This document shows positions 11,832 through 38,659 of a stretch of 41,847 nucleotides of DNA, in pieces (position 1 is the first letter of the stretch; each line of letters begins with the position of its first letter). Both the position numbers and the translations under genes were made by a program. The DNA is from Burkholderiales bacterium (lineage in GTDB: Bacteria; Pseudomonadota; Gammaproteobacteria; Burkholderiales; SG8-41): the NCBI GenBank assembly GCA_040081205.1, contig JBEBHE010000002.1, forward strand, positions 1 through 41,847, written 5' to 3'. The notes beneath the pieces were generated by a model. The model saw only the letters and a program-made list of their open reading frames with translations, ran no database searches and was not told the DNA's origin.

Positions 11832-11917
11832 TTTGTTACTTTGACAGAGGTTATAATCAAGGTGAATCGGCGTAAAAACGTCGCCCGTCATTCTAACTGA
11901 TTTACCTCTCGACGATA

Positions 11918-12334
11918 ATGCCAAGCAAGCCTTCCGCAGCACTTGAAACGTTCCCGAATCCCGCGCCGCGGCGCGACTACAGGATTCACATGGAAGTTCC
12001 TGAATTTACCTGCCTTTGTCCGAAAACCGGCCAGCCTGATTTCGCGACTTTGGTGCTGGATTACGTGCCGGACAAGCGTTGTGTCGAGTTAAAAAGCCTC
12101 AAACTCTATGCGTGGTCGTTTCGCGATAAGGGCGCATTTCACGAGGCCGTGACAAATCAAATGGTTGACGACTTGGTAAAGGCGCTGACACCACGTTTCA
12201 TAAGGCTGACTGCGCGCTTTTACGTGCGAGGCGGCATCTTTACCACGGTGGTTGCTGAGCACGTGAAGCGCGGCTGGAAAATATCGTCGCTGCCGGAATA
12301 TGCTGAGAACGCCAACTCGGCGAGCACACGCTAA
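11918..12334 (+). CDS. queF: NADPH-dependent 7-cyano-7-deazaguanine (preQ0) reductase, short type
   Basis: The 138-aa protein has the QueF motif [15 protein letters not shown] with the catalytic Cys, and a C-terminal GGI motif typical of unimodular QueF. Confidence 0.92.
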
Positions 12335-20699: not shown

Positions 20700-20822
20700 C
20701 AACCCCTCGCTACATCCCCAAATCGGGTGGCGAGCCTAACCCCCGGCACTTGCAGAGAATAGCTTTGGCTGCTTCCTTCCGGACCTGACCAGGTTCACTA
20801 CCATGCAATGCGGGGAGGCCCG
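20700..20822 (-). ncRNA. ffs: Signal recognition particle RNA (4.5S, small bacterial type); ends are approximate
   Basis: The minus strand reads ...GAACCUGGUCAGGUCCGGAAGGAAGCAGCCAAAGC..., which is the universally conserved SRP RNA domain IV (E. coli: ACCAGGUCAGGUCCGGAAGGAAGCAGCCAAGGC). Flanking segments CCCCGCAUUGCAU and AUGUAGCGAGGGG can pair to close the hairpin. The location upstream of dnaX is classic. Confidence 0.85.
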
Positions 20823-21061
20823 CCGTAAATCGTCAATACCGTATTGCAACTCTTAATAAATTAAATCGTAAGAATGACGTAAGTATATGCTAAATCAGGA
20901 GTTTTTACTACAGATATCAACCCCAACGACTTTACAAAATAGGCATTTAGTGTTTTTATCGCAACAATCAAAGAACAAAATCCCGTCCGCCCACGCATTA
21001 ATTAGGGTCAGCGCTCGCGGGATACGCAAATCCGTATAGTCATACCTTTCCGGAGGCATAT

Positions 21062-23029
21062 ATGTCCACGATCGAATCTGTATTAAGCGAAGAACGCCTG
21101 TTTCCACCCAGCGACGCGTTTATCAAACAGGCCAATATTTCAGGCATGGACGCCTACCGCAAGCTATGCGCCGAAGCCGAAAGTGACTTCGAAGGCTTTT
21201 GGGGCAACCTCGCGCGCAAGGAATTACTGTGGCAAAAGCCCTTCACCAAGACGCTAGATGAATCCAAAGCTCCGTTTTTCAAGTGGTTCGACGATGGCGA
21301 ATTGAATGCTTCATACAATTGCCTGGATCGGCACCTGAAAACACAACCAGACAAGATTGCGATTGTTTTCGAGGCCGATGATGGCAAGGTGAACACCATC
21401 ACCTACCGCGACTTGCATCGCGAAGTTTGCAAAGCGGCCAACGGTCTGAAGTCGCGCGGCATCCGGTTGGGCGACCGCGTCATTGTGTATATGCCAATGT
21501 CGATTGAGGCTGTGGTGTGCATGCAGGCCTGCGCACGCATCGGCGCGATTCATTCGGTAGTGTTCGGCGGCTTTTCTGCAAAAAGTTTGCAGGAACGCAT
21601 TATCGACGCTGGTGCGGTGGCGGTGCTGACCGCAGACGGGCAATTTCGTGGCGGACGTGAAATCCCGTTAAAGCCCGCTGTGGATGAAGCCCTCACGCTG
21701 GGTGGCTGCGAGTCCATTCACAGTGTCGTCGTTTACAAGCGCACCGGAACCACGGTTGCCTGGAATGCTAAACAAGATGTCTGGCTGCATGACCTGTTGA
21801 AAGACCAGTCCGAAACCTGCGAACCGACGTGGGTGAACGCGGAACATCCGCTGTTTATACTCTACACGTCCGGCTCTACTGGCAAGCCCAAAGGCATTCA
21901 ACATTCCACAGGTGGTTATTTGCTGTGGACTATCCTGACAATGAAGTGGACGTTTGACTACAAGCCGAGCGATGTGTTCTGGTGTACAGCGGATGTCGGC
22001 TGGGTGACCGGACATTCCTACGTTTGCTACGGCCCGCTGGCGTGCGGTGCGACCGAAGTTATTTTTGAAGGCGTGCCGGTTTACCCGGATGCCGGCCGTT
22101 TCTGGAAAATGATTCAGGACCACAAAGTCAGTGTGTTTTATACCGCACCGACGGCGATTCGTTCGCTGATCAAAGCCGGCGGCGATCTGCCCAAAAAATA
22201 TGACCTGAAAAGTCTTCGTATCCTGGGCACCGTGGGCGAGCCGATTAATCCCGAAGCGTGGATGTGGTACCACGAAACGGTTGGCGGCAGCCGTTGCCCG
22301 ATTGTCGATACCTGGTGGCAAACCGAAACCGGCGGACACATGATTACGCCGCTGCCGGGCGCCACGGCCACAAAACCGGGTTCAGCAACTTTTCCCCTTC
22401 CTGGCGTTATTGCCGATATTGTCGATGAAACCGGCCAATCGGTCGGCAGAGGCAAAGGCGGTATTCTGGTTATCAAAAAACCGTGGCCGTCGATGGTGCG
22501 CACGATTTGGGGCGATCCGGAGCGTTTCAAAAAAACCTACTACCCGGAAGATTTTCAGGGCAAGTATTACCTCGCCGGCGACGGCGCAACCTACGATTCC
22601 GAAGGCTACATTCGAATCATGGGGCGCATTGACGACGTGCTGAATGTATCGGGACATCGCCTTGGCACCATGGAAATCGAGTCCGCGCTCGTCGCCTATA
22701 AAGAACTTGTCGCCGAAGCGGCCGTAGTCGGACGCCCGGATGAACTTACTGGTGAAGCGATTTGCGCGTTCGTCGTGTTAAAGCGCTCGCGCCCCACCGG
22801 CGACGAGGCAAAGAAAATCGTCAAGGAATTGCAGGATTGGGTAGCCAAGGAAATTGGCCCCATCGCAAAGCCTCGCGACATTCGCTTCGGGGATAATCTG
22901 CCCAAGACACGTTCCGGAAAAATCATGCGTCGCCTCTTGCGCTCTATCGCCAAAGGCGAGGAAATTACGCAGGATGTTTCCACGCTGGAGAATCCGGCGA
23001 TCCTGGATCAGTTAAAACAACCGTTGTGA
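21062..23029 (+). CDS. acs: Acetyl-CoA synthetase (AMP-forming)
   Basis: The 655-aa protein has the AMP-binding motif [19 protein letters not shown] and YYLAGDGA. The C-terminus has [14 protein letters not shown] with the acetylatable Lys context. A GGAGG SD lies 7 nt upstream of the ATG. Confidence 0.97.
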
Positions 23030-23244
23030 GTCAGTCGAAGCCCATAGGCAACGAACAACGCGGGCAGCGCCTCGCGGCGTTGTTCCTGCTGGGTTGCTTG
23101 CTGTTCAACTACCCGCTGCTGCAATTGTTTGCGCGCGATGGCACCGTTCTGGGTATGCCGCTGCTCTATTGCTATGCTTTCGGCGCATGGGCCGTGTTAA
23201 TCGGGTTGATGGCGCTGGTGGTTGAACGCCGCGACCGCGACTAG
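23026..23244 (+). CDS. Small two-TM membrane protein resembling the DUF4212 symporter small subunit
   Basis: The 72-aa protein has two hydrophobic helices. A GTG start overlaps the acs stop (GTGA), and the gene ends 9 nt before the sensor kinase. It shares the pattern (F/Y)AR ... LG(M/F)PL ... Y ... G with the DUF4212 protein at 30269-30535. Confidence 0.6.
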
Positions 23245-23253
23245 GAAATCATT

Positions 23254-26046
23254 GTGCTAACCGGCGGCATTATCGTCGTCGCCTCGTTTGCCTACGTCGC
23301 CCTGCTGTTCGCCATCGCGGCTTACGGCGACAAGCGCGCCGATGCCGGGCGCAGCCTGATCGCCAATCCATACATTTACGCGCTGTCTTTGGCGGTGTAC
23401 TGCACGTCGTGGACCTTCTACGGCAGTGTCGGCCGTGCCGCGACATCGGGCATCGGCTTCCTGCCAATCTATCTCGGCCCGACATTGATGGCCGCGCTGT
23501 GGTGGTTTCTGCTGCTAAAAATGATACGCATCAGCAAGGCCAATCGCATCACCTCCATCGCCGACTTCGTTGCGTCGCGCTACGGCAAAAGCCAATTGCT
23601 CGGCGGACTGGTCACCATCATCGCGGTTATCGGCATCATTCCGTATATCGCGCTGCAATTAAAAGCGATCTCCACCAGTTTCTCCATCATCCTACACTAC
23701 CCGGGCGTCGCGATGCCTGAAAAACTCGGCGCGCAATTGTTCATCGGCGACAACACCTTTTATATCGCGATGATGCTGGCCGCGTTCACCATTCTGTTCG
23801 GCACGCGCCACCTGGATGCGACGGAGCGCCACGAAGGATTGGTCGCGGCGATTGCGTTTGAATCAGTAGTAAAACTGGTTGCCTTCATCGCCGTCGGTTT
23901 GTTTGTCACATACGGCATGTACAATGGCTTCACGGATATTTTTCAGCGCGCGCGCGAAAATCCGCAATTGCACGCGTTAATGGCCCAAGGCGGCGAATCC
24001 GGCAGTTACACGTCGTGGGCATCGCTGACGCTGCTGTCAATGTTTGCCATTCTGTTTTTGCCCCGCCAGTTTCAGGTTGCCGTGGTGGAAAATGTCGATG
24101 AGCGGCATTTAAACAAAGCGATCTGGCTGTTTCCGCTGTATTTACTCGTGATTAACATCTTTGTGCTGCCCATTGCGCTGGGCGGCCTGCTGCGGTTTCC
24201 CTCGGGCGGCGTCGATGCCGACACTTTTATGCTGACGCTGCCGATAGCCGAACAGCAGCCGTGGATCGCGTTACTCGCTTTCATCGGCGGCCTGTCCGCA
24301 GCGACGGGCATGGTGATCGTGGAAACCATCGCGCTATCAACGATGGTATGCAACGATCTGGTGATGCCGGTGCTGCTACGTTTACGCTGGCTGCGGCTTA
24401 CTGAACGGCGCGATTTGTCGCGCCTGCTACTGGGCATCCGACGCGGTGCAATTGTCGCAATACTGATGCTGGGCTATGTTTATTTTCATCTCGCCGGAGA
24501 GGCGTATGCTCTTGTTTCTATTGGATTAATATCGTTCTCTGCGGTAGCGCAATTTGCGCCCGCTATCATTGGCGGCCTGTTCTGGAAAGGCGGCAACCGG
24601 CTGGGGGCGATCTGTGGTTTGAGCGCGGGATTTCTGGTTTGGCTCTACACCCTGTTGCTGCCCTCCTTCGCAAAATCCGGCTGGCTACCCATTACATTTT
24701 TGTCGCAAGGCTTCGCGGGCATTGAACTGCTCAAACCGCAGCAACTTTTCGGATTGCAAGGCCTTGATGAAATTTCGCATTGTTTATTCTGGAGCTTGCT
24801 CGCCAATATCGGACTTTACGTTGCGATTTCTATGCTCCGCCGTCCCGACGCGTCGGAGCATAGACAGGCCGTGCTGTTCGTCGATGCCAATCGGCAGTCG
24901 CCCGCAGCGGGTTCGCGATTCTGGCGTGGCAGCGCGTCCATCAACGATTTGCTTGCGTTGTTGGGCCGTTTTCTCGGCCCGGCGCGCGCGCACGACGCCA
25001 TGACAGAATACGCGCGGCACCGCAGCGTGCAGACCATCGAAGCGATACCAGCAGACGCCGATACGGTTCATCATGCCGAGTCGCTGCTGGCCGGCGCTAT
25101 CGGCAGCGCCAGTGCAAGGGTCATGATGGCATCCGTTGTAGATGAAGAGCCGCTCGGCATTGACGAAGTTATGCACATCATCGACGAAGCATCGCAAGTG
25201 CTGGCCTACAGCCGGCAGCTTGAACGTCAATCACGCGAACTCGAAGCGGCGACCAACGACTTACGCAACGCCAACTCACGCTTAAAAGAACTTGACAGAC
25301 TGAAGGACGATTTCATTTCCACCGTCACGCATGAGTTGCGCACACCGCTGACCTCCATTCGCGCGTTTACCGAAATACTTCGCGACAATCCAAATTTAGC
25401 GCAAGTGCAGCGTGAGAATTTTCTGGGTATTGTCATTCGGGAATCCGAGCGCCTTACACGCCTTATCAATCAGGTGCTGGATCTGTCGAAAATCGAGTCC
25501 GGCAACGCGGAATGGCAATCGATTCAATTCGACATGCGCGATGTAATCAACGAATCCGCCTCTGCCGTTGGGCAGTTATTCCGCGACAGCGGCGTTACTT
25601 TGGCCATTCAACTTCCTGACGATGCGCCGGAAATCGTTGCTGACCGTGACCGCGTGATGCAAGTGATGTTGAACCTGCTGTCCAATGCAGCGAAATTCTG
25701 CGAAGCCGGCAAAGGCCAGGTTCGCGTCACACTCGCTTGCGAGCCCCATGCACTGCACGTGAATGTCATAGACAACGGCATTGGCATCAGCGCCGAGGAT
25801 CAGGCCGTGATATTCGACAAATTCCGGCAGGCCGGCGATACGCTGACGCAAAAGCCCAAAGGCAGCGGACTGGGTCTCGCGATCTCGCGCCAGATCATTG
25901 AGTTCCTTGGCGGCCGGCTCTGGGTTACCAGCCGCTTTGGTGACGGCGCAACCTTTTCGTTCACGCTTCCCATCAGCGGCGGGCACGTAGAACGACCATC
26001 ACAAATGAATGCGACCGAGTATGCCCAGGAAAATTCTCATCGTTGA
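23254..26046 (+). CDS. Sensor histidine kinase with an N-terminal sodium/solute symporter (SSS/SLC5) domain and STAC-like linker (CrbS/CbrA-like architecture)
   Basis: The 930-aa protein starts with ~520 aa of SSS-type TM helices (ITSIADFVASRYGKS, IPYIALQLKAIS). A STAC-like segment follows (AESLLAGAIGSASARVMMASV), then a coiled coil. The HisKA H-box is FISTVTHELRTPLTSI (His codon 25330-25332), and the HATPase has N, G1 and G2 boxes (LLSNAAKF, DNGIGI, GSGLGLAISRQI). I could recognise no PAS domain and no fused receiver. Confidence 0.9.
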   Translation: MLTGGIIVVASFAYVALLFAIAAYGDKRADAGRSLIANPYIYALSLAVYCTSWTFYGSVGRAATSGIGFLPIYLGPTLMAALWWFLLLKMIRISKANRITSIADFVASRYGKSQLLGGLVTIIAVIGIIPYIALQLKAISTSFSIILHYPGVAMPEKLGAQLFIGDNTFYIAMMLAAFTILFGTRHLDATERHEGLVAAIAFESVVKLVAFIAVGLFVTYGMYNGFTDIFQRARENPQLHALMAQGGESGSYTSWASLTLLSMFAILFLPRQFQVAVVENVDERHLNKAIWLFPLYLLVINIFVLPIALGGLLRFPSGGVDADTFMLTLPIAEQQPWIALLAFIGGLSAATGMVIVETIALSTMVCNDLVMPVLLRLRWLRLTERRDLSRLLLGIRRGAIVAILMLGYVYFHLAGEAYALVSIGLISFSAVAQFAPAIIGGLFWKGGNRLGAICGLSAGFLVWLYTLLLPSFAKSGWLPITFLSQGFAGIELLKPQQLFGLQGLDEISHCLFWSLLANIGLYVAISMLRRPDASEHRQAVLFVDANRQSPAAGSRFWRGSASINDLLALLGRFLGPARAHDAMTEYARHRSVQTIEAIPADADTVHHAESLLAGAIGSASARVMMASVVDEEPLGIDEVMHIIDEASQVLAYSRQLERQSRELEAATNDLRNANSRLKELDRLKDDFISTVTHELRTPLTSIRAFTEILRDNPNLAQVQRENFLGIVIRESERLTRLINQVLDLSKIESGNAEWQSIQFDMRDVINESASAVGQLFRDSGVTLAIQLPDDAPEIVADRDRVMQVMLNLLSNAAKFCEAGKGQVRVTLACEPHALHVNVIDNGIGISAEDQAVIFDKFRQAGDTLTQKPKGSGLGLAISRQIIEFLGGRLWVTSRFGDGATFSFTLPISGGHVERPSQMNATEYAQENSHR

Positions 26047-26389
26047 GGATGATCATAATATATTGATTTCATTAGATTTTTTAATGAGATCTGAAAACTA
26101 CGATACGCGCACGGCCGGTACCGGGAATGGAGCGCTTGCAATCGTTGGAGAATTCATCCCCGATTTGATACTGCTGGATGTGATGCTGCCTATGATGAAT
26201 GGCTTTGAGGTATGTCAAACCCTTCGTGCCAATCCAGCATTAAATGCACTGAAGATCGTTATGCTGACTGCCAAAGGCCGTGAATCCGAAATCGCAGAAG
26301 GCATGGCATCAGGAGCGGATGCCTACATCACCAAACCCTTTGCGACGCGCGACCTTGTGAAAATCGTAAAACAACTGCTGGGAGACTAG
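26021..26389 (+). CDS. Stand-alone receiver (CheY-like single-domain response regulator)
   Basis: The motifs are (M)PRKILIVEDD, phospho-acceptor context LILLDVMLP, conserved T (MLTAKG) and K (YITKPF). There is no output domain. It overlaps the kinase stop by 26 nt, or 38 nt if the ATG at 26009 is used. Confidence 0.85.
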   Translation: MPRKILIVEDDHNILISLDFLMRSENYDTRTAGTGNGALAIVGEFIPDLILLDVMLPMMNGFEVCQTLRANPALNALKIVMLTAKGRESEIAEGMASGADAYITKPFATRDLVKIVKQLLGD

Positions 26390-27904
26390 ATGCGGTCGCG
26401 TTTTGCGGCAGTGTGGGCGGTTTGTACAGGGCTGATCCTGTGTGGTGCGGCAAGCGTCTTGTTTGTATTGCATGGCGCCCTGGAACCGGCTGATCGCCTC
26501 ACGCTGCTTCGCATGCTCGCGGCAAACGTGACAGTACTCGTAATCCTGCTGATTTTTACGTGCGTGATTTCTGCATGGATAGCGAATTGGGTCATGCAAC
26601 ACTATGTCAAGCCATTGCACCGTTACGCTGACGGCATTGGATTGATCGCTGCTGGAAATCCGGCGTACCGGGTAGAAGCGGCGCCACCGGCGGAATTGCG
26701 GATCGTCGCTACCGCCATCAATGCATTGGCCGCTCGCCACGAAGCCACCTTGCGCGACGTTACCGCCCGTGTTCATGAAGCGCAGTCCAATTTGGAATTG
26801 GAGAAAAGCCATCTCGCCACGCTGATGTCGGAACTCGCGCAGAGTGTTGTGGTTTGCAATGCGCAAGGCGAAATCCTCCTCTATAACGAAAAAGCCCGCC
26901 ACTTGTTTTCATCCGTTCATGAAAGCACCGATGAAAAAGCCATGCCTTTTCTCGGGCTGGGTCGATCCATTTATGCATTAGCGGACCACGGTGCCGTACG
27001 TGCCGGTCTTGACGAACTGCGGCAACGACTGGCATCCAATGTGCCGAACCCGGTCGCTGATTTCACAATGCAGCTCGCAAACGGCAAAATCGCCCATGCG
27101 CGCATGGCACCGGCCCGGCATCAGGCTACCGCTTCCCCAACACCTGCGACCGAAATCGATGGTTTTGTATTATTGCTGACTGCCGTCAACGCCGAACATG
27201 AAGCACGGCCCTCCCGCCATTCGGAAACATTCGCGCCAACGGGTCGTCCCGTCTATTACGACTTCGACCTTTTTCATCAGGCCGGACAGACCAAGGAAAT
27301 AGAAGACCGCCCGCTATCGAAGATCGTCTACACCGCGTTCGACACCGAGACGACAGGACTTGAGCCGTCCTCTGGAGATGAAATCATCGCCATAGGCGCA
27401 ATCAGACTCGTCAATGGCCGGCTGCTGCATCAGGAACAATTCTCAAAACTTATTGATCCCCGTCGCCCGCTTTCGCCGGAATCCATTGCCATCCACGGCA
27501 TTACACCGGAGATGCTGCGCGGAAAGCCCACCATAGAGAAAGTGATCCCCGCTTTTTATCAATTCTGTGAAGACACCGTATTGCTGGGGCACAATGCGGC
27601 ATTTGATATGCGTTTTCTCGAGATAAAACAGCGGCAGACGGGAATAAAATTCACGCAGCCAGTGCTCGACACTCTGCTACTTTCTGCCGTGTTGCACGGC
27701 ACCTTGCAGGCCCATGGTCTTGATGCGATCGCGTTGCGCCTCGGCGTGGCTGTAGTGGATCGCCACAGCGCCATCGGGGACGCCGTAACCACCGCGCAGA
27801 TTTTCCTTAAACTGCTGCCCCTGCTTTCGCAGCGCGGCATTGTCACGCTTAGACAGGCTCGCGAAGCGTCCGCGACTACGTCCTATGCCCGACTTCGATA
27901 CTGA
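26390..27904 (+). CDS. Membrane-anchored HAMP-PAS protein with a C-terminal DEDDh (DnaQ/PolIII-epsilon-like) 3'-5' exonuclease domain
   Basis: The 504-aa protein has two N-terminal TM helices with a very short loop. A HAMP-like segment follows (KPLHRYADGIGLIAAGNPAYRV...AINALAARHEA), then a PAS-like segment (LMSELAQSVVVCNAQGEILLYNEKARHLF). The exonuclease motifs are ExoI FDTETTGL, ExoII GHNAAFDMRFL and ExoIII HSAIGDAVTTA. The ATG abuts the receiver stop (TAGATG). Confidence 0.85.
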   Translation: MRSRFAAVWAVCTGLILCGAASVLFVLHGALEPADRLTLLRMLAANVTVLVILLIFTCVISAWIANWVMQHYVKPLHRYADGIGLIAAGNPAYRVEAAPPAELRIVATAINALAARHEATLRDVTARVHEAQSNLELEKSHLATLMSELAQSVVVCNAQGEILLYNEKARHLFSSVHESTDEKAMPFLGLGRSIYALADHGAVRAGLDELRQRLASNVPNPVADFTMQLANGKIAHARMAPARHQATASPTPATEIDGFVLLLTAVNAEHEARPSRHSETFAPTGRPVYYDFDLFHQAGQTKEIEDRPLSKIVYTAFDTETTGLEPSSGDEIIAIGAIRLVNGRLLHQEQFSKLIDPRRPLSPESIAIHGITPEMLRGKPTIEKVIPAFYQFCEDTVLLGHNAAFDMRFLEIKQRQTGIKFTQPVLDTLLLSAVLHGTLQAHGLDAIALRLGVAVVDRHSAIGDAVTTAQIFLKLLPLLSQRGIVTLRQAREASATTSYARLRY

Positions 27905-29300
27905 ACAGATAGATCCGCCGCTCAGCGGGCTGATGCGCGCCGCGCCGGTATCTTGCCTGCCGGATACGCGTGTGGAAACCGTATTGAGCATCATGAAAGA
28001 CAAGCGTATTGGCTCCATGATCGTCACCGACCCTCAAATGAGACCCATCGGCATTTTGACGCTGCGTGATGTCCTGGACCGGATCGCACTTGCGCCCGGC
28101 GCTTTGCAAATGCCCATTGAGCGCGTGATGTCGCGTCACCCCTTGTGCATCCCGGTTGACAGCAGTGCCTATCAGGCATCGCTTGCCATGATTCGGCACG
28201 GCGTCAATCACATCATCGTGGTTAAAAACGAACTGCTTGCGGGACTCGTTTCGGCCCGGGATCTATTTGGCCTGCAACATAGCAGCGTAAAAACCCTATC
28301 CACAGCCATCCGCAGTGCGCACGATCTTGGCGCTATTGAAGCATTCGGTCGCGACATTGGCGTTCTTTCGCGCAAAATGCTTGCTCAGGGCATCGCAACA
28401 GGGCCGCTTTGCGCTTTTATCGCCTCACTCAACGATCTGCTGACACAACGCATCGTGGAAATGGAGTTCCGCGACGTGTCCATTCCCTATTGCTGGATAC
28501 TCATGGGCAGCGAAGGGCGCTCTGAACAAACGCTGGTCACCGATCAAGACAACGGCCTGATCTTTTCGCCGGCGGACGGCAGCGATCCCGAAGTAGCGCG
28601 CCAGGAATTACTGACGGTTGCGCGCCGCATCAACCTGGCCCTTGATCGTGCCGGTTATCAGCTCTGCCCCGGCGATATCATGGCCGGGAATCCGCGATGG
28701 TGTCTGACCTTGAACGAGTGGCGCAGCCGGTTTCAGCATTGGATCGCCTCCGGTGATCCTCAGGCAATATTACACGGCATGATATTTTTCGACCTCAGAC
28801 CACTGCACGGTGAAACCATGCTTGCGCAGCACCTGCGGGATTGGATAACGGAGAATGCGCGGCACAGCCAGCGATTCCTGCACCTGATGGCTCAAGGCGC
28901 GTTGAAGAATGGCGCCCCCCTTGGATTGCTGGGACGATTCAAACTGGATGCCGGCGGTTACCTCGACCTTAAAATCAACGGAACAACCCTGTTCACAGAC
29001 GCAGGCCGCATCTTTGCACTGGCGGCCGGGATTGACGAAACCAACACGGAACGCAGATTGCGCAGAGCAGGCACTGCGCTCAATATTCCGCTGGATGAAA
29101 TTGAAGCATGGATTGCGGCGTACTACTGCTTGCAAGGACTCAGGCTTCGAATGCAGGCAGCGGCGTTGGCGAGCGGAGGCTCAGCCGACAACCGATTGGC
29201 GCCCAGGCAGTTGCATGCGTTTGATCGCGAGGTTCTCACCCTGGCATTTCATCAAGCCACTAAGTTGCAGAAACGACTCCGCATGGAATACAGTGCTTGA
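27885..29300 (+). CDS. CBS-pair / DUF294-type putative nucleotidyltransferase (GlnD-like Pol-beta fold) with a DUF294_C-type helical domain
   Basis: Two CBS modules are present (VETVLSIMKDKRIGSMIV...GILTLRDVL; ASLAMIRHGVNHIIV...GLVSARDL). The NTase motif GSEGRSEQTLVTDQDNGLIF (nt 28506-28565) parallels the glnD motif in this same window. I call the start at ATG 27885, a 20-nt overlap with the exonuclease gene; the ORF is open from 27840. Confidence 0.85.
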   Translation: MPDFDTEQIDPPLSGLMRAAPVSCLPDTRVETVLSIMKDKRIGSMIVTDPQMRPIGILTLRDVLDRIALAPGALQMPIERVMSRHPLCIPVDSSAYQASLAMIRHGVNHIIVVKNELLAGLVSARDLFGLQHSSVKTLSTAIRSAHDLGAIEAFGRDIGVLSRKMLAQGIATGPLCAFIASLNDLLTQRIVEMEFRDVSIPYCWILMGSEGRSEQTLVTDQDNGLIFSPADGSDPEVARQELLTVARRINLALDRAGYQLCPGDIMAGNPRWCLTLNEWRSRFQHWIASGDPQAILHGMIFFDLRPLHGETMLAQHLRDWITENARHSQRFLHLMAQGALKNGAPLGLLGRFKLDAGGYLDLKINGTTLFTDAGRIFALAAGIDETNTERRLRRAGTALNIPLDEIEAWIAAYYCLQGLRLRMQAAALASGGSADNRLAPRQLHAFDREVLTLAFHQATKLQKRLRMEYSA

Positions 29301-29330
29301 TGAATAAAATTTATCTGCATGAAACGCATG

Positions 29331-30002
29331 CTAGGGAATTTCCTGCTCAAGCAAGTAGCCGCGCCCATAGATAGTACGCACCGCCACGCCGCTGCCGTCC
29401 AGCTTCTTCCTGAGGCGATGCACGTAGACCTCGATAGCGTTATGCGTCACCTCTTTGTCATAGCTGTAGAGTAATTCGACCAATTGCTCCTTGCTGACTA
29501 CACGCCCAAAGCGTCTCAACAAAATTTCCAGTACGCCGGATTCGTGCAGCGAAAGCGGCAGCGCTTTTCCTTGTACACTAGCGAGCCGTGACACCGTATC
29601 GAAGGCTAAATTTCCATATTGCAAGGTCGGAGATGCATCTCCTGCACCGCGACGCAACAGCGCGCGCACGCGCGCCTTCAGTTCATCCTGGCTAAATGGT
29701 TTGACCAGATAGTCGTCCGCACCAAGGTCGAGACCGATGACCTTTTCTTCAGACTGTTCACGCCCCGACAATATCAGCACAGGCAGCGTGGTATTACGCT
29801 TGCGCAGCCGGCGCAGCACCTCAAAGCCATCCAGTTTGGGTAGCCCCAAGTCAAGGATCAGCAGGCCAAAGCCATCACCTTTGAGTGCTTCATCCGCAGC
29901 AAGCCCATGCTCTACATGGTCAACCGCATAGCCCGCTTGGCTCAGCGAAAAACGCAACGCCTCTGACAGCGCCGCATCATCCTCCGCAATCAGAATTCGC
30001 AA
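29331..30002 (-). CDS. OmpR/PhoB-family winged-helix response regulator
   Basis: The receiver has (M)RILIAEDD, LLILDLGLP and YLVKPF. The winged-helix output has VEVYVHRLRKKL and RTIYGRGYLL. I call the start at TTG 30000-30002, preceded by a GGGGGAG SD; the ORF is open to 30047. Confidence 0.9.
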   Translation of the reverse strand: MRILIAEDDAALSEALRFSLSQAGYAVDHVEHGLAADEALKGDGFGLLILDLGLPKLDGFEVLRRLRKRNTTLPVLILSGREQSEEKVIGLDLGADDYLVKPFSQDELKARVRALLRRGAGDASPTLQYGNLAFDTVSRLASVQGKALPLSLHESGVLEILLRRFGRVVSKEQLVELLYSYDKEVTHNAIEVYVHRLRKKLDGSGVAVRTIYGRGYLLEQEIP

Positions 30003-30068
30003 TCGACTCCCCCAGAATCTTACCGCAAGAATGCTGTGCCGCAACAAAACTGCGGATTGAAAAATAAC

Positions 30069-30087
30069 TTAAATACTTGTTTTTATT
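30069..30087. repeat. AT-rich motif, copy E, inverted orientation (reverse complement AATAAAAACAAGTATTTAA)
   Basis: It lies in the divergent promoter region between the OmpR-type regulator and the DUF4212 gene. It is 16/18 identical to copy A. Confidence 0.45.
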
Positions 30088-30268
30088 TATATTTTTTTAA
30101 TAAACCCGAAGTTAAAAACATTTCTTATTGCGTGCCCTAGTTCAGGATTTTGTAAGCAACTTAAACTAGCATTAAAGCGCTAAAACGGGCGCTCAAGATC
30201 ACCAATATCAATACTTTATCTGGTCTTGGACGTTTGATAAATCAGGTTATTCACTCAAGGAGGGGTCT

Positions 30269-30535
30269 GTGCAACCTAGCGCAAAACACCAGGAATACTG
30301 GCGAAAAAATCTGGTCATTACGGCGATATTGCTTGTGATTTGGTTTGTTGTCACTTTCATTGAAGGGTGGTACGCCCGTGAACTGAACAGCATGACCTTC
30401 CTCGGATTTCCTCTCGGCTTCTACATGTCCGCGCAAGGCTCGCTAGCGATTTACGTGATCATTATTGGTTTCTACGCGATGTTCATGAAGAAACTCGACA
30501 AAGAGTACGGCGTTGACGAAGGAGACCTCGAATGA
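30269..30535 (+). CDS. DUF4212-type small subunit of a sodium:solute symporter
   Basis: The 88-aa two-TM protein has a GTG start preceded by an AAGGAGG SD. Its stop overlaps the ATG of the large SSS subunit (ATGA), the characteristic small/large subunit pairing of the VC_2705-type symporter family. Confidence 0.85.
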   Translation: MQPSAKHQEYWRKNLVITAILLVIWFVVTFIEGWYARELNSMTFLGFPLGFYMSAQGSLAIYVIIIGFYAMFMKKLDKEYGVDEGDLE

Positions 30536-32607
30536 GCCAAGCCACCAGTCACAGCGCATTTAACTCGCAGCTGAAAAAGTATTATACGTTCTACACTGGC
30601 GGATTCATCGCGTTTCTGATTTTCCTGGCCATTGCCGAGCAAATGGGCATGTCCAGGGCGATGATCGGCTACGTTTTTCTTGCCGCGACCATAGGCCTGT
30701 ATGCCGGCATCGGCATCATGAGCCGTACTGCGGAGGTATCGGAGTATTACGTCGCGGGCCGCCGGGTTCCAGCGTTCTTCAACGGCATGGCGACCGGCGC
30801 GGACTGGATGAGCGCGGCATCCTTCATCGGCATGGCGGGCACGCTGTATCTGTCGGGATTTGATGGCTTGGCCTTCGTCATGGGCTGGACCGGCGGCTAC
30901 TGTCTGGTAGCGTTTTTGCTGGCCCCCTATCTGCGCAAATTTGGGCAATTCACTATTCCCGACTTTCTGGGCGCGCGTTATGGCGGCAATATCATCCGCT
31001 CCATCGGCGTGATTGCCGCCATCACCTGTTCGTTTGTTTATGTGGTGGCGCAAATCTACGGCGTGGGCCTCATTACCAGTCGCTTCACGGGGTTGGAGTT
31101 CGGCGTAGGCGTGTATGTCGGCCTCGCAGGCATCCTCGTTTGCTCGATGCTCGGCGGCATGAAAGCCGTCACGTGGACACAGGTGGCACAGTACATCATT
31201 CTGATCATCGCCTATATGACGCCGGTGGTGTGGTTGGGCATCAAGCATACCGGCATCCCCGTGCCGCAAGTCGCTTACGGCCCTGTGCTGCAAAAGGTGG
31301 GCGACCTTGAAAAGAAAATCACCGCTGACCCGAAAGAGATCGAAGTTCGCAATATCTTCAAGGATCGCGCCGCTACCGCCAACGCAGGTTTGAAAGATCC
31401 GGCCAAGGTGTACGGTGAAGGCAAGGCCAAGCTTGAGAAAGCGGTCGCTGACGCCAAGGGCGTGGAGCCTGCGGATACGGCCAAAGTAGCCGCAGCGGAA
31501 AAGGCGCTGGCCGCGTATCCGAAAGACGAAGCAGCGGCAAAGGCACAGTGGAACAAGGACAAAGGCCTCGCTGCGCGTGCCGCGCCGCCAAGACCGCATG
31601 CCGATCCTTATCCGGGCAAGGACGAAGACGCACGCTTCACCGCCAAACTCAATTTTCTTGGCATAGTGTTTTGCATGATGTTCGGTACCGCAGCATTGCC
31701 GCATATCCTGATGCGTTACTACACCACGCCCAGCGTGCAGCAGGCGCGTGTGTCGGTATTCTGGTCACTGTTTTTCATCTTCCTGCTCTATTTCACCGCC
31801 CCTTGCCTCGCCGTGCTGGCGAAGTTCGATGTCTACAGCAACTTGGTGGGCAGTAGTTTTTCGTCGTTACCTGCATGGGCGGCGGCGTGGGCAAAAGTTG
31901 ATCCAACTCTGCTGAGTATTGTTGACATCAACATGGACGGCATAGTGCAACTCGCGGAAATTGTGATTGGCGGCGACTTGATTGTGTTGGCAACGCCCGA
32001 AATCGCCGGCCTGCCTTATGTGGTATCCGGGCTGGTTGCTGCCGGTGGCCTTGCTGCCGCGCTTTCTACTGCAGACGGGCTGCTGCTAACCATCGCCAAC
32101 GCGCTGTCGCACGATCTCTACTACAAGATGATTGACCCGCAAGCCAGTACCAAAACACGCGTGACCATCTCTAAAGTGCTGTTGATCTTTGTTGCGGGCG
32201 TTGCCGCATTCGTCACATCACTCAAACCTGGTGACATTCTGTTCCTGGTGGGCGCGGCGTTCTCGCTGGCGGCTTCGGCATTCTTCCCGCCGCTGGTCAT
32301 GGGCGTATTCTGGAAACGCGCCAACAAGTGGGGTGCTATCGTTGGAATGCTGGCCGGATTAGGCGTGTGCATGTATTACATGATGCGCACCTATCCGTTC
32401 TTCACCAATATGGGCGTACCGAAGATGGATCTCTGGTTTGGCCTTAATCCGATCTCGGCAGGTGTGTTTGGTTTGCCGATTGGCCTGCTGACCATCTTCA
32501 TCGTGAGCCTGCTGACGGCACCGCCCGATGCGGAAACGCAAAAGTTGGTCGAACACGTGCGTTACCCGAATCTGGTTGGCGACACTTACCAATCGCAAGC
32601 GACCTAG
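30532..32607 (+). CDS. Sodium:solute symporter large subunit (SSS family, VC_2705-like; probable monocarboxylate/acetate-type transporter)
   Basis: The 691-aa multi-TM protein has SSS hallmarks (YYVAGRRVPAFFNGMATGADWMSAASFIG, TIPDFLGARYG). It contains a ~119-aa hydrophilic Ala/Lys/Glu-rich insertion. The substrate is not determinable from sequence. Confidence 0.9.
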   Translation: MSQATSHSAFNSQLKKYYTFYTGGFIAFLIFLAIAEQMGMSRAMIGYVFLAATIGLYAGIGIMSRTAEVSEYYVAGRRVPAFFNGMATGADWMSAASFIGMAGTLYLSGFDGLAFVMGWTGGYCLVAFLLAPYLRKFGQFTIPDFLGARYGGNIIRSIGVIAAITCSFVYVVAQIYGVGLITSRFTGLEFGVGVYVGLAGILVCSMLGGMKAVTWTQVAQYIILIIAYMTPVVWLGIKHTGIPVPQVAYGPVLQKVGDLEKKITADPKEIEVRNIFKDRAATANAGLKDPAKVYGEGKAKLEKAVADAKGVEPADTAKVAAAEKALAAYPKDEAAAKAQWNKDKGLAARAAPPRPHADPYPGKDEDARFTAKLNFLGIVFCMMFGTAALPHILMRYYTTPSVQQARVSVFWSLFFIFLLYFTAPCLAVLAKFDVYSNLVGSSFSSLPAWAAAWAKVDPTLLSIVDINMDGIVQLAEIVIGGDLIVLATPEIAGLPYVVSGLVAAGGLAAALSTADGLLLTIANALSHDLYYKMIDPQASTKTRVTISKVLLIFVAGVAAFVTSLKPGDILFLVGAAFSLAASAFFPPLVMGVFWKRANKWGAIVGMLAGLGVCMYYMMRTYPFFTNMGVPKMDLWFGLNPISAGVFGLPIGLLTIFIVSLLTAPPDAETQKLVEHVRYPNLVGDTYQSQAT

Positions 32608-32628
32608 CACCTTGTGCGCGTAACTGAC

Positions 32629-32656
32629 AAAGCCCGCTTCGGCGGGCTTTGTTTTT
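32629..32656 (+). terminator. Rho-independent terminator of the symporter operon
   Basis: AAAGCCCGC-TTCG-GCGGGCTTT is a perfect 9-bp stem with a tetraloop, followed by GTTTTT. It lies 21 nt after the stop codon. Confidence 0.85.
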
Positions 32657-32672
32657 AGATTAGAATCAGCCC

Positions 32673-35711: not shown

Positions 35712-37610
35712 TTATTTTATAGCGAGTGCACTCTTGATCTGATCCAGCGCAGCAGGGTCTTCAATCGTCGTGAGATCTCCCGGATCGCGTCCTTCGGCCA
35801 GCGCCTGTATGGAGCGCCGCAGCAATTTCCCGGAGCGCGTCTTGGGCAGCAGTGTCACGAAATGCACGCGCGACGGCCTGCCAATCGCGCCGAGTTGTTT
35901 GTCCACTGCCTCCATCACCTCCTTTTCCTGCACGGCTTTGAGTTCAGGGGTAGCGATTTTTGCGCCGTCTTTCAATACGACAAACGCAAGCGGCATCTGC
36001 CCCTTGATGGAATCGACTACGCCGACCACGGCAACCTCGGCCACATTAGCGTGAGACTGCACGGCTTCTTCGATCTCCCGTGTGCCCAGGCGATGGCCGG
36101 CGACGTTGATCACATCATCCGTACGGCCGAGTATGTAGTGATAGCCGTCCTTGTCGCGGATGCCCCAATCGAACGTGGAATAAACCTGCTTGCTGCGGAA
36201 GCTGGTGAAATAGGTATTCACAAACCGTTCGTCGTCGCCCCACACGGTCGTCATACAACCCGGTGGCAATGGCGGAACGATGCCGACCACACCCTTTTCA
36301 TCCGCATCAGCCTCACTGGCATCCGATTCGCGCAGAATTTGCAGATCGTAGCCGTATACCGGAAAGCTCGGCGTGCCGAGTTTGATCGACGTTTTCTCGA
36401 CACCATGCATCGCCGACAAAATGGGCCAGCCGGTTTCGGTTTGCCAATAGTGATCGATCACCGGTTTTTTTAACGCGTCTGCAATCCAGCGATGCGTCGG
36501 TTCATCCAGCGGTTCGCCCGCGAGAAACAGATGGCGCAACGACGACAGATCGTATTTTGTGAGGTACAGCGGATCCTGTTTTTTCAACACGCGCGCAGCG
36601 GTCGGTGACGAAAACATCACTGAAACCTTGTGGTCGGCGACAATTTTCCACCAGATGCCCGCATCGGGGCGTATCGGCAGCCCTTCATACAATATCGTTG
36701 TCATGCCTGTGATCAGCGGCGCATACACAATGTATGAATGCCCGACAACCCAACCAATGTCCGAAGTTGTGAACATGGTTTCGCCCGCGTTGCCGCAATA
36801 AATGTGCTTCATCGACGCGGCCAGAGCGACTGCGTAGCCGCCGGTGTCGCGCTGCACGCCTTTGGGGCGACCGGTCGTCCCTGATGTATACAGAATGTAG
36901 GAAGGGTCGCTCGACTCCAGCCAGGTCACCGGCGTATTCACATTGGCGTGCGCCTTGCGCAGCGTCGCGTAATCCAGATCGCGTCCGGCAACAGGTTTAA
37001 AATCCTTGTCGATACCTCGATTGACGACGATCACATTGCGCGGCGGATGCTTGGCGAGCCTCATCGCTTCGTCTACCAAAGGCTTGTACGGAATTGCACG
37101 TCCACCTCGCATGCCTGCATCGGCGGTAATCATCAGCGCCGGCTTGGCGTCGTCGATGCGCGTGGCGAGGCTTGCCGCTGCAAATCCGCCGAACACCACC
37201 GAGTGAATGGCGCCGACACGTGCGCATGCCAGCATTGCGAACACTGCCTCGGGGATCATCGGCATGTAGATCAACACACGATCGCCCTTGCCCACGCCTA
37301 ACGTGATTAGCATGGCTGCCGCGCGATTGACCTCTTTGTAGAGTTCGCGATAGGTGTAGGTTTTTTCCTGCCCGGTTTCGGTCGAAATATAGATCAGCGC
37401 TTTCTGATCACCGCGCGCAGTGAGATGCCGGTCTATCGCGTTGTGACACAGATTGGTTTCGCCGCCCACAAACCACTTGGCGAACGGTGGGCGTGAAAAA
37501 TCGCAGACCTGGGAAAACGGCTTGTGCCAGTCAATCAGCGCCGACTGCTCGGCCCAGAATCCATCACGCTCCTGGAGCGAGCGTTTGTGAAATTCCTGAT
37601 AGGCGCCCAT
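35712..37610 (-). CDS. prpE: Propionate--CoA ligase (acyl-CoA synthetase, PrpE-like)
   Basis: The 632-aa protein has the PrpE-type N-terminus YQEFHKRSLQERDGFWAEQ, the AMP motif YTSGTTGRPKG, YWQTETGWP and C-terminal PKTRSGKLLRR. It is distinct from the acs copy at 21062. Confidence 0.85.
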   Translation of the reverse strand: MGAYQEFHKRSLQERDGFWAEQSALIDWHKPFSQVCDFSRPPFAKWFVGGETNLCHNAIDRHLTARGDQKALIYISTETGQEKTYTYRELYKEVNRAAAMLITLGVGKGDRVLIYMPMIPEAVFAMLACARVGAIHSVVFGGFAAASLATRIDDAKPALMITADAGMRGGRAIPYKPLVDEAMRLAKHPPRNVIVVNRGIDKDFKPVAGRDLDYATLRKAHANVNTPVTWLESSDPSYILYTSGTTGRPKGVQRDTGGYAVALAASMKHIYCGNAGETMFTTSDIGWVVGHSYIVYAPLITGMTTILYEGLPIRPDAGIWWKIVADHKVSVMFSSPTAARVLKKQDPLYLTKYDLSSLRHLFLAGEPLDEPTHRWIADALKKPVIDHYWQTETGWPILSAMHGVEKTSIKLGTPSFPVYGYDLQILRESDASEADADEKGVVGIVPPLPPGCMTTVWGDDERFVNTYFTSFRSKQVYSTFDWGIRDKDGYHYILGRTDDVINVAGHRLGTREIEEAVQSHANVAEVAVVGVVDSIKGQMPLAFVVLKDGAKIATPELKAVQEKEVMEAVDKQLGAIGRPSRVHFVTLLPKTRSGKLLRRSIQALAEGRDPGDLTTIEDPAALDQIKSALAIK

Positions 37611-37660
37611 GAATCTGTCCTCCCATTAGTGAGTATTCGGGCATTATCAAACGATAGTGC

Positions 37661-38659
37661 TTACGAAAGTCTGACCACCGCCCTGCCGCGCATGCCGCCC
37701 TTCAGTATCTGCTCAAAGGTTGCGCCGAGGTCATCAAGTGTTATGGTCTTTGCGATATCAGCCAGGTGCCTCGGCTTGAGATCGCTCGCCAGCCGCTGCC
37801 ATACTTTACGCCGCAGCGGCATGGGCGTCGCCGCGGAATCCACGCCGATCAAGCGCACGCCGCGCAGAATGAACGGCAACACATTGGTTTTAAGCTCTAT
37901 GCCTCCGGCATTACCGAAGCTCGCGATCAAACCATTTTGATTCATCGTGCGTGTCAGCCACGACAATTGATCGCCGCCCACCGAATCAAATGCCGCCGCC
38001 CACTGCGATTTCTCCAATGGCCGCGTGCCCATGTCCATAGCCCCGCGCGCGAGTATCTCCTGTGCGCCGAGCTTGCGTAGAAACGCGTGTTCGTTGTCTT
38101 TGCCAGTGACTGCGGTTACGGCATAACCTTTGCCCGCCAGCATATCGATGGCAAGACTTGCCACGCCACCCGTCGCACCGTTTACCAGCACTTTGCCCTT
38201 ATCACCTTCCACTGGCGCCAATCCGTTGATTTCCAGCAACTCAATTGCCAATCCAGCGGTGTAGCCGGCAGTGCCCAGTGTCATTGCTTCGAACAGTGAC
38301 AGCCCGTGCGGCAACGGTACCACCCAATTCGCGGGAACACGGCACACTTGCGCAAAGCCGCCGTCATGCGCGACGCCAAAATCATAGCTGGTGCATATCA
38401 CTTCGTCACCCGCTTTGAATCTCGCGTCGGTTGATGACACCACCACGCCTGCCGCGTCGATGCCGCCCACCAATGGATATTTTCGTATCACTTTGCCGCC
38501 TACGCCGGTGGCGGCCAGCGCGTCTTTGTAATTGACGCCCGAATACGCATTCTTGAATACCACTTCACCGGGCATCAAATCGCCCACTGTCAGATCGGTG
38601 ATTCGGCCGTGTATTTTGTTGTCGTCGTTGAACACCCGGTAAGCCTTGAAATTTTCCAT
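37661..38659 (-). CDS. acuI: YhdH/AcuI-family NADPH-dependent acrylyl-CoA reductase (MDR superfamily)
   Basis: The 332-aa protein has the N-terminus GEVVFKNAYSGVNYKDALA and the nucleotide motif VNGATGGVAS, both typical of the YhdH subfamily. It is adjacent to prpE. Confidence 0.82.
   Translation of the reverse strand: MENFKAYRVFNDDNKIHGRITDLTVGDLMPGEVVFKNAYSGVNYKDALAATGVGGKVIRKYPLVGGIDAAGVVVSSTDARFKAGDEVICTSYDFGVAHDGGFAQVCRVPANWVVPLPHGLSLFEAMTLGTAGYTAGLAIELLEINGLAPVEGDKGKVLVNGATGGVASLAIDMLAGKGYAVTAVTGKDNEHAFLRKLGAQEILARGAMDMGTRPLEKSQWAAAFDSVGGDQLSWLTRTMNQNGLIASFGNAGGIELKTNVLPFILRGVRLIGVDSAATPMPLRRKVWQRLASDLKPRHLADIAKTITLDDLGATFEQILKGGMRGRAVVRLS

Follow-up and report, generated by a model that had tools for sequence, protein, structure and literature searches.

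A conserved island of a Burkholderiales bacterium, probably a monocarboxylate two-component system, joins an SLC5/STAC sensor kinase to a stand-alone receiver and an exonuclease/DUF294 pair

A stretch of 41,847 nucleotides (nt) from a Burkholderiales bacterium (GenBank assembly GCA_040081205.1, contig JBEBHE010000002.1; hereafter the window) contains a chromosomal island of nine genes, which encode acetate-CoA ligase (acs), a small membrane peptide, a sensor histidine kinase, a stand-alone receiver, a membrane-anchored exonuclease, a DUF294 nucleotidyltransferase, an OmpR-type response regulator and the two subunits of a sodium:solute symporter (SSS). The island is probably a betaproteobacterial SLC5/STAC two-component system for monocarboxylates, of the CrbS/R, MxtR/ErdR and RpuS/R type, in which sensing, uptake and activation are brought together at one locus. 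It is real and it is conserved: dozens of independent genomes show this arrangement, more than chance would give. The idea of an acetate switch is itself established; new here are the order kinase, receiver, HAMP-PAS exonuclease, found in ~40 loci of several phyla with DUF294 nearby in most, together with pseudokinase-exonuclease fusions, a candidate box linked to the OmpR-type regulator and a GlnE/DrrA-like model of the DUF294 protein. The carboxylate switch proposed in a preliminary description of this DNA draws support from the kinase family, the literature and the gene neighbourhood; acetate as the signal is suggested by context.

All nine open reading frames (ORFs), and the junctions between them, were recovered from the ORF list and by direct reading exactly as the preliminary description had them. 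Six genes (acs, small ORF, kinase, receiver, exonuclease, DUF294) are co-directional and tightly packed on the plus strand, with catalytic and phospho-acceptor motifs intact throughout. The acs stop and the GTG of the small ORF overlap (GTGA, 23026-23029), a feature peculiar to the window, locus L081 having a 49-nt gap instead (L-numbers denote homologous loci fetched for comparison, A-numbers the alignments or profiles built here). Between the stop of the small ORF (23242-23244) and the start of the kinase (GTG, 23254) lie 9 nt; the kinase ends with its stop at 26044-26046 and overlaps the receiver by 26 or 38 nt, depending on whether the receiver starts at the ATG at 26021 (MPRKILIVEDD) or that at 26009; receiver and exonuclease abut (TAGATG, 26387-26392); and the exonuclease stop (27902-27904) lies beyond the DUF294 ATG at 27885, an overlap of 20 nt. 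A terminator and promoter scan found no strong terminator or consensus promoter within the acs-to-DUF294 stretch. That acs is the first gene of the sensor string, and that two enzymes of unknown function stand inside the kinase operon, both hold for the window. The gene for the OmpR-type regulator, on the minus strand, converges on this string and diverges from the symporter operon, whose two genes share 4 nt and are followed by a strong terminator, an arrangement that the sequence confirms.

Two surveys show how widely this combination occurs. The first was seeded with the exonuclease and comprised 80 loci, 69 of them with enough upstream sequence; a kinase is present in 41 of the 69, and kinase, receiver and exonuclease are colinear in 39 of those 41. 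Of the kinase-positive loci, 30 have DUF294 within 10 kb, 22 an SSS gene and 17 DUF4212. Hosts include Burkholderiales, Anaerolineae/Caldilineaceae, Anaeromyxobacter and metagenome-assembled genomes (MAGs) of Actinomycetota. All nine genes of the island are found likewise in three loci, L001, L081 and L082, and in L081 the recR-dnaX-PagL and TPR flanks of the window recur too. The order in Caldilineaceae is DUF4212-SSS-DUF294-x-kinase-x-receiver-exonuclease-ACS, and the recurrence of the same content in differing gene orders argues for selection on the combination. The second survey was seeded with DUF294 (78 loci): an exonuclease gene is adjacent in 58, while 38 loci have SSS, 36 acs (beside DUF294, in several gene orders) and 31 the kinase. 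Another frequent layout consists of acs, a cNMP-CBS-DUF294 gene, a short exonuclease of 232 residues, a small ORF, kinase, receiver, a LuxR-type regulator, DUF4212 and SSS. Exonucleases without a sensor module adjoin DUF294, while those with a sensor module follow the receiver. The association of DUF294 and PolIII-epsilon-like genes with actP/acs is documented by the surveys as well as in the literature, and the proposed co-occurrence of DUF294, DEDDh exonuclease and SSS-type kinase is borne out by the 58/78 pairing and the 39/41 colinearity. Profile searches of each protein agreed with the domains first assigned, except that no SSF domain was found in the kinase and no family for the ORF of 72 residues.

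A compact form of the module lies on plasmid 1 of Paracoccus denitrificans PD1222 (L163:6278-13178, PDEN_RS25395-25415), where DUF294, a small ORF, the kinase, the receiver and a long exonuclease follow one another with stop/start overlaps of 4-11 nt; no symporter, acs or DNA-binding regulator was found near this core. Megaplasmids of Cupriavidus necator encode kinases 63-64% identical, and the five-gene core is probably present there also, the kinase homologue alone having been seen. Seven loci have, together with the module, a conserved ORF of ~130-150 residues without a Pfam match; among them are the Caldilineaceae/Anaerolineales loci L014 (8646-9044, between kinase and receiver), L060 (14100-14558) and L009.

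The kinase (930 residues; 23254..26046, plus strand) is, judged by homology, a member of the SLC5/STAC family, to which CbrA, CrbS and RpuS belong. Its layout comprises an SLC5-like membrane domain (residues ~1-530; ~13 hydrophobic segments by a crude hydropathy count), a STAC-like region (~540-640), and then HisKA (684-750) and HATPase_c (797-907), the last two with Pfam scores of 5.3e-20 and 6.5e-28. Searches of the first 640 residues with the SSF models of Pfam and NCBIfam gave no match even at E<10. The kinase is nonetheless clearly a symporter-like sensor by its homology to 10ED, the SLC5-STAC structure of CbrA, and its profile match to SSS symporters: phmmer against the Protein Data Bank (PDB) returned 10ED_A at E=8.9e-76 over residues 8-474; profile A1, built from 24 kinase orthologues, aligned residues 7-627 with residues 10-589 of 10ED (E=3e-93); and hhalign of the kinase profile against the SSS symporters of these loci gave a probability of 96.9% over transmembrane helices 8-13. 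The symporter-type character given to the kinase in the preliminary description stands, therefore, as membership of the SLC5/STAC family and not as a Pfam or NCBIfam SSF domain. The STAC-like region was assigned from the alignment of profile A1, the single-sequence alignment ending at residue 474; in CbrA, STAC residues 531-582 contact SLC5 (PMC13488458).

Neither PAS nor Response_reg was matched by Pfam or NCBIfam in the 930 residues, in keeping with the initial view of a kinase without PAS domain or fused receiver. Compared with a CrbS/RpuS-like hybrid of Azospirillum, the SLC5-STAC part is 47% identical and the kinase core 27%; among NCBIfam models the core best fits those of the PnpS/WalK/PhoR type. 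On these comparisons the sensor module is the one common to the CbrA/CrbS/RpuS family, the transmitter being of another type. Kinases of the PhoR, WalK and PnpS types pair with OmpR-class regulators, which favours the OmpR-type protein as the probable partner of the kinase. A related SLC5-STAC module, 56% identical over residues 6-659, is encoded on plasmid NC_020548.1 of Azoarcus sp. KH32C (L016:6631-8600 region, hit H16), where it is annotated within an EAL domain-containing protein; this suggests that the sensor module is also coupled to outputs of cyclic di-GMP turnover.

The receiver (122 residues; 26021..26389, plus strand) consists of Response_reg alone (6.5e-27), with its phospho-acceptor motif intact (DD, LLDVMLP, T and K), and is ~48% identical to the receivers in the same position in L104 and P. 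denitrificans. That it might be a split-off CrbS receiver is not supported, since it shows 28.6% identity (E=0.002) to the fused receiver of the Azospirillum hybrid against 33% to the OmpR-type receiver; its likeness to the fused CrbS receiver appears to be one of position only. The DNA-binding regulator (29331..30002, minus strand, ORF open to 30047) combines Response_reg (2e-27) with Trans_reg_C (1.3e-18), and is accordingly OmpR/PhoB-like rather than LuxR- or NtrC-type, as first described. Translation probably begins at the TTG at 30002 (MRILIAEDD, with GGGGGAG before it); orthologues are called at 223-224 residues in L081 and L082. No NCBIfam equivalog scored above its cutoff, the best being TctD with 228 bits (cutoff 337). 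Among kinase-positive loci with a sensor exonuclease, 15 have an OmpR-type regulator and 8 a LuxR-type one, while in 32 the fetched flanks contain none; these counts are not deduplicated and include about four contigs fetched twice. The stand-alone receiver is thus the constant partner of the kinase while the type of DNA-binding regulator varies, and sister clades with the same kinase and receiver carry a LuxR-type regulator.

The exonuclease (504 residues; 26390..27904, plus strand) has an RNase_T domain (1.3e-36) at residues 316-472. An AlphaFold model (predicted local distance difference test, pLDDT, 81) shows two transmembrane helices with a short connecting loop, a HAMP/coiled-coil stalk to ~150, a PAS-like fold (152-265), a disordered linker (268-300) and a DEDDh 3'-5' exonuclease domain; Pfam lends weak support to HAMP in the window protein and to HAMP and PAS in homologues. 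The catalytic residues D318 and E320 (FDTETTG), D406 (HNAAFD), H459 and D464 (HSAIGD) are invariant in alignment A6, and the domain is nearest in sequence to the proofreading domains of PolC and epsilon. The first 300 residues constitute a separate family, with 838 cluster representatives at E<=1e-3; among the best 150 of these 838, obvious fragments aside, most are either ~500 or ~700-730 residues long. The long forms (~715 residues), which include PDEN_RS25415 of P. denitrificans (L163:11058-13178), proteins of L007, L025 and L027 and the ~700-residue proteins P0003-P0120, have an insert of ~215 residues where residue 272 lies in the window protein. The insert shows homology to the DHp-CA module of the neighbouring kinases (hhalign of A7 against A8: 97.6%, E=3.5e-12, 205 columns), with a residue other than His at the phospho-acceptor position (THELRTPL in the kinases, TETARASL in the insert) and with N and G boxes unrecognisable in the consensus. 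The long forms are, on this alignment, fusions of a pseudo-histidine kinase and an exonuclease, with a degenerate DHp-CA between PAS and DEDDh. The window protein is a short form lacking the insert, as are the members of its clade, which are 50-60% identical to it, and this clade has lost the module. A literature search for kinase-like or HAMP/PAS exonucleases found nothing relevant.

In histidine kinases the DHp is the docking surface for the receiver. A link between receiver and exonuclease is suggested because the long forms hold a DHp-CA module and because sensor-less exonucleases adjoin DUF294 and not the receiver. Alternatively, the receiver might be a phosphate sink only, like the fused receiver of CrbS, with exonuclease and DUF294 as co-expressed cargo outside the control of the phosphorelay. 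The CrbS receiver is indeed dispensable, its deletion or mutation permitting signalling and raising acsA expression, and a sink was proposed (PMC5436829); it is also the case that the receiver precedes a LuxR-type regulator, not the exonuclease, in loci of the L104 type, and that the exonuclease of the window has no DHp-like docking module. We nevertheless think this alternative unlikely, given that the receiver-then-exonuclease order, with abutting or overlapping codons, is kept in the 39 of 41 loci across phyla, that a kinase-like scaffold underlies the long forms, that the module of P. denitrificans has no DNA-binding regulator near it, and that the window receiver is no closer to a fused CrbS/RpuS-type receiver (the 28.6% given above) than to ordinary OmpR-class receivers.

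The partner of the exonuclease is a protein of 471 residues (27885..29300, plus strand) with the Pfam architecture CBS-CBS-DUF294-DUF294_C. Pfam detected no cNMP-binding domain in it; homologues of 600-650 residues in L014 and L104 possess one, and relative to the COG2905 layout the window protein is a truncated-architecture member of the DUF294 family. The polymerase-beta-type nucleotidyltransferase motif G-S-x(9-13)-D-x-D is present as GSEGRSEQTLVTDQD, and its residues G208, S209, D220 and D222 are invariant in alignment A5. A search of PDB sequences detected CBS matches only and no solved DUF294 domain. In a structural model (pLDDT 87.6) the best fold matches are GlnE (1v4a and 3k7d) and DrrA (6yx5), and the CBS pair resembles adenine-nucleotide-binding CBS proteins. 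A canonical glnD (666-3254, plus strand; NTP_transf_2, GlnD_UR_UTase, HD and ACT) is also found in the window, which implies that the DUF294 enzyme is no substitute for the PII uridylyltransferase.

The substrate and biochemical role of the enzyme pair are what we infer from these features. Our preferred guess is that exonuclease and DUF294 protein would add and remove a nucleotide on a protein target, gated by the adenylate level through the CBS pair, and would so tune the expression or activity of the symporter post-transcriptionally. Such a writer and eraser is favoured because of the GlnE/DrrA-like fold of DUF294, its pairing with a hydrolase and the release of 5'-nucleoside monophosphate from a phosphodiester that a DEDDh domain might be expected to catalyse. 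In its fullest form the proposal would make the core of the island a two-component pathway with a primarily enzymatic output: the phospho-receiver would dock on the pseudokinase scaffold of the exonuclease, and exonuclease and DUF294 would act as eraser and writer, reversibly nucleotidylylating a protein that controls carboxylate uptake or activation (or, as an alternative target, the 3' tail of an RNA). We put this forward as a distinctly speculative scheme, improbable in all its parts together.

Poly(A) polymerases and CCA-adding enzymes belong to the polymerase-beta-type nucleotidyltransferases, and the proofreading domains nearest to the exonuclease act on nucleic acids. The pair might accordingly act on RNA, by 3' tailing and trimming or by the exonuclease alone degrading mRNAs or small RNAs, and thereby set transcript levels of the symporter or of central metabolism. 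Related speculation has been published: Henriquez et al. suggest that pp_0353 degrades mRNAs of the tricarboxylic acid cycle, the glyoxylate shunt or transporters (PMC9927547), and Price et al. that a neighbouring gene is needed for symporter expression (10.1101/072470). However, the best fold matches of DUF294 are the protein adenylyltransferases GlnE and DrrA, not RNA-tailing enzymes, Pfam detected no RNA-binding domain, and Rfam at gathering thresholds found no RNA gene within the island; we hold action on RNA to be improbable, though a serious rival to the writer and eraser.

Pairs of a nucleotidyltransferase and a nuclease are common in defence systems, and in PADLOC the DEDDh domain matches the generic CRISPR-associated DEDDh and the PDC-S48 models. 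It is nonetheless extremely improbable that the two enzymes form an anti-phage or nucleotide second-messenger (CBASS-like) module that has come by chance to lie in a metabolic island. DUF294, receiver and small ORF have no meaningful PADLOC hits; the DUF294 fold is GlnE-like rather than cGAS/DncV-like; the flanks are housekeeping genes; and the pair travels with acs, symporters and the carboxylate kinase across phyla and belongs to a carbon-source regulon.

The symporter operon comprises a DUF4212 small subunit (30269..30535, plus strand; PF13937 2.5e-30; TIGR03647 104 bits, cutoff 26) and a VC_2705-family large subunit (30532..32607, plus strand; TIGR03648 772 bits, cutoff 321; SSF 9.5e-57), and is followed by an intrinsic terminator (32626..32660, plus strand) with a 12-bp stem of 7 GC pairs and a T-run, hairpin and T-run occupying 32626-32653. 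Upstream of it, in the gap that separates it from the divergent regulator gene, lies a candidate regulator box, TCAGGAT-TTTG-TAAGCAA (30142..30172 on the plus strand when the -10-like TAGCAT at 30167-30172 is included; alignment A3). The sequence TCAGGATTTTGTAAG (window 30142-30156) is invariant in the regulator-DUF4212 intergenic regions of 8 of 8 loci, the remaining flank being unconserved, and a TAnnAT hexamer follows 10-11 nt 3' of the box in seven of them. In the 1.53 Mb of fetched loci matches with <=2 mismatches are confined to those eight sites, all of which have the divergent OmpR-type gene. A possible reading of the candidate box is a direct repeat, T(C/A)AGnnT-N4-TAAGnnn (period 11 bp), standing in place of the -35 element, and pho boxes likewise replace that element. 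A sigma-54 reading of the TCAGGATTTTGTAAG box was discarded, the spacing from GG to GC being 9 and not 10 and the GC unconserved (A3). Another conserved block, TTGTTTTTATT, occupies window 30065-30082, ~60 nt upstream of the box, and is placed likewise in L001, L081 and L056; an architectural protein might bind there, or the block might serve as the divergent promoter of the regulator gene itself.

A tentative second box, TCAGACTTTCGTAAGCAC (37657..37674, minus strand), lies ~50 nt upstream of prpE (35712-37610, minus strand; propionate-CoA ligase, TIGR02316 1074 bits), 3 kb 3' of the island. It was the best non-training hit of a position-weight-matrix scan (score 16.6) and is followed after 11 nt by GATAAT, a spacing as at the symporter; it overlaps the stop codon of an acuI-like gene of the acrylyl-CoA reductase family. 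Hits at <=3 mismatches number 3 against 0.79 expected, which is not significant alone. The matrix hits that rank next lie upstream of acs in L008, L082 and L077. Inspection of L104 by eye revealed no CrbR-type ACTU palindrome upstream of acs or DUF4212.

The product of acs (655 residues; 21062..23029, plus strand) scores 995.6 bits against TIGR02188 (cutoff 725) and contains ACAS_N, AMP-binding and AMP-binding_C. Upstream of the gene a block at 20930..20959 (plus strand), CTTTACAA-N8-TTTAGTG-N-TTTTAT, is conserved among the window, L001, L081 and L082 (alignment A4). It looks promoter-like, with a putative -35 element TTTACA, 17 nt, and TG-n-TTTTAT; the promoter consensus scan does not flag it. 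A TTGTAA-like core common to the upstream regions of acs and symporter was set aside as too short (9 hits against 5.9 expected); the block may be read more simply as a promoter. In the gap between PagL and acs, just upstream of acs, lies the gene for the SRP RNA, ffs (20726-20824, minus strand; Rfam RF00169, 79.8 bits), and the promoters of ffs and acs must therefore be divergent, with ~240 nt in common; L082 apparently has the same layout, judging from a near-identical stretch in the alignment of its acs upstream sequence.

Between acs and the kinase a small ORF (23026..23244, plus strand) encodes a peptide of 72 residues with two hydrophobic segments in hydropathy. A small ORF was detected 5' of the kinase gene in 27 of the 41 kinase-positive loci. 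The window peptide has no significant family match in Pfam (DUF3311 alone appears, below threshold, at E=0.024), and no sequence similarity to PDB chains, CbrX included, was detected; a relationship to DUF4212 as a paralogue was rejected, BLASTP yielding no alignment. Two hydrophobic helices and a position upstream of the kinase make it an analogue of CbrX in place and topology, and we do not claim homology.

As for the ligand, the transporter-like domain of the kinase would bind a small carboxylate, most likely acetate in view of the presence of acs, with propionate or pyruvate possible. It could be, however, that the monocarboxylate sensed and imported is not acetate but pyruvate, lactate, propionate or D-alanine, and that acs is adjacent for a secondary reason. 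For symporters of the VC_2705-type DUF4212/SSS class, lactate and D-alanine phenotypes are known from Shewanella and P. stutzeri, DUF4212 being the required small subunit (10.1101/072470); MxtR/ErdR, pp_0353 and actP-I matter for growth on pyruvate, mutants of the pp_0353 exonuclease and of actP-I both being impaired, by a mechanism the authors call unclear (PMC9927547); RpuS/R senses pyruvate and in response activates an SSS symporter operon (PMC9100948); and one candidate box precedes prpE. Yet acs, a true AcsA by its TIGR02188 score, heads the operon, and it is adjacent in 36 of the 78 DUF294 loci in several gene orders, which leaves a ligand other than acetate, in our judgement, rather unlikely, though well worth bearing in mind.

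With acetate as the likeliest signal, the island would most probably operate as a branched phosphorelay, from the kinase to the OmpR-type regulator on one side and to the stand-alone receiver on the other. The kinase would phosphorylate the regulator, which would bind the direct-repeat box, where this overlaps the symporter's -35 region, and perhaps the prpE box too, and activate transcription. The receiver would take the phosphoryl group from the same kinase and serve as a sink, connect to the exonuclease, or do both. For nearly a decade the DUF294/exonuclease pair has been recognised among the conserved members of the acetate/pyruvate regulon, directly bound by the regulator and with weak mutant phenotypes; the island and its relatives place the pair in one operon with a sensor kinase and a single-domain receiver, and suggest a concrete and testable wiring from kinase to receiver to exonuclease. 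The occurrence of the core in a cultured and genetically tractable organism, P. denitrificans PD1222, makes this old question approachable by experiment.

Several points weigh against our interpretation. The regulator is OmpR-type, LuxR-type or absent according to lineage, and the pairing of kinase and regulator is not fixed. The box is a single 18-mer whose repeat structure is our own reading, and the promoter region of acs has no convincing box, the acs-linked hits in L008, L082 and L077 being weak and at most suggestive. The absence of a DHp-CA-like module from the window exonuclease means that the docking argument covers its relatives only. The fold match of the DUF294 model is moderate (TM-score ~0.5) and cannot identify a substrate. 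A DUF294 mutant of P. putida had no phenotype, and neither mutant of the pair altered growth on acetate (PMC9927547). Finally, L027, L058 and ~24 other Accumulibacter loci (exonuclease at ~10001-12154) have the long form without kinase or receiver within 10 kb; its neighbours vary, being PFK and DUF4178 in one species and an acyl-CoA dehydrogenase and a thioesterase in another, and no conserved partner was found beside the orphan exonuclease in these loci.

The remainder of the window is housekeeping in character (map, glnD, def, ligA, zipA, smc, dapD, recR, dnaX and PagL), and 3' of the island follow a TPR gene, tRNA-Ser, tauD, mscS, prpE, the acuI-like gene, zapE and lpdA. No second histidine kinase was found elsewhere in the window.

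Among the closest known systems is CrbS/CrbR (MxtR/ErdR) of Vibrio and Pseudomonas. CrbS/R (VC0303/VC2702) and MxtR/ErdR control acs (PMC5436829); the sensor there is also an SLC5/STAC kinase, acs and an SSS monocarboxylate permease are targets, and an operon of DUF294 and an RNase_T exonuclease is directly targeted (pp_0354/pp_0353, pflu5625, PA3232-3233). In P. putida pp_0354/pp_0353 is bound by ErdR (PMC9927547); in P. fluorescens pflu5625, a cNMP-CBS-DUF294 gene, belongs to the CrbS/R regulon, its mutant having no phenotype (PMC5715377); PA3232-PA3235 are co-induced on propionate, the pair together with actP (PMC9765439); and a DUF4212 symporter shows cofitness with a neighbouring gene to which the preprint gives the label COG2905 (RNase T domain protein) (10.1101/072470). 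The characterised SLC5/STAC members CbrA, CrbS and RpuS all have PAS, and CrbS and RpuS a fused receiver as well (PMC5715377, PMC9100948). The window differs in that its kinase has neither, the receiver being a separate gene; its regulator is OmpR-type whereas CrbR is LuxR-type; acs and the enzyme pair sit in the kinase operon, whereas they are scattered in CrbS/CrbR genomes; and its exonuclease has a transmembrane-HAMP-PAS module while its DUF294 protein lacks the cNMP-binding domain.

CbrXA of P. putida is the best structural relative of the sensor domain, 10ED being a cryo-EM structure of the CbrX-CbrA SLC5-STAC fragment in which CbrX, a two-helix hairpin translationally coupled to cbrA, packs on transmembrane helices 3 and 8 (PMC13488458). 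In both systems the gene of a small two-helix peptide lies tightly 5' of the kinase gene; CbrA, in contrast, senses histidine, contains PAS and partners the NtrC-type CbrB (PMC5715377, PMC13488458). RpuS/RpuR of Sinorhizobium fredii resembles the island: an SLC5/STAC kinase there switches on, by way of a promoter motif, an adjacent SSS monocarboxylate symporter operon with a small membrane protein. There, however, the kinase is a PAS-containing hybrid, the regulator is LuxR-type, MctP with a DUF3311 protein takes the place of VC_2705 with DUF4212, and a DUF294/exonuclease pair has not been reported.

The DUF294 enzyme itself invites comparison with GlnE and GlnD. The model of DUF294 with DUF294_C is closest to the two domains of GlnE, the glutamine synthetase adenylyltransferase, and to the Rab AMPylase DrrA, and its pairing with a hydrolase recalls transferase/removase pairs, although the partner here is a DEDDh exonuclease and not an HD domain or a second nucleotidyltransferase domain. 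Close to the island as well are the L104-type loci of Usitatibacteraceae and other Burkholderiales MAGs, where the kinase is ~64% and the receiver ~48% identical, acs stands first and DUF4212/SSS last; they differ in that the exonuclease, of 232 residues, has no sensor module and is not beside the receiver, and in that the regulator is LuxR-type. Set among these systems, the locus illustrates modular exchange within the SLC5/STAC family, in which the sensor module stays constant and the transmitter, the DNA-binding regulator and the promoter box are replaced together.

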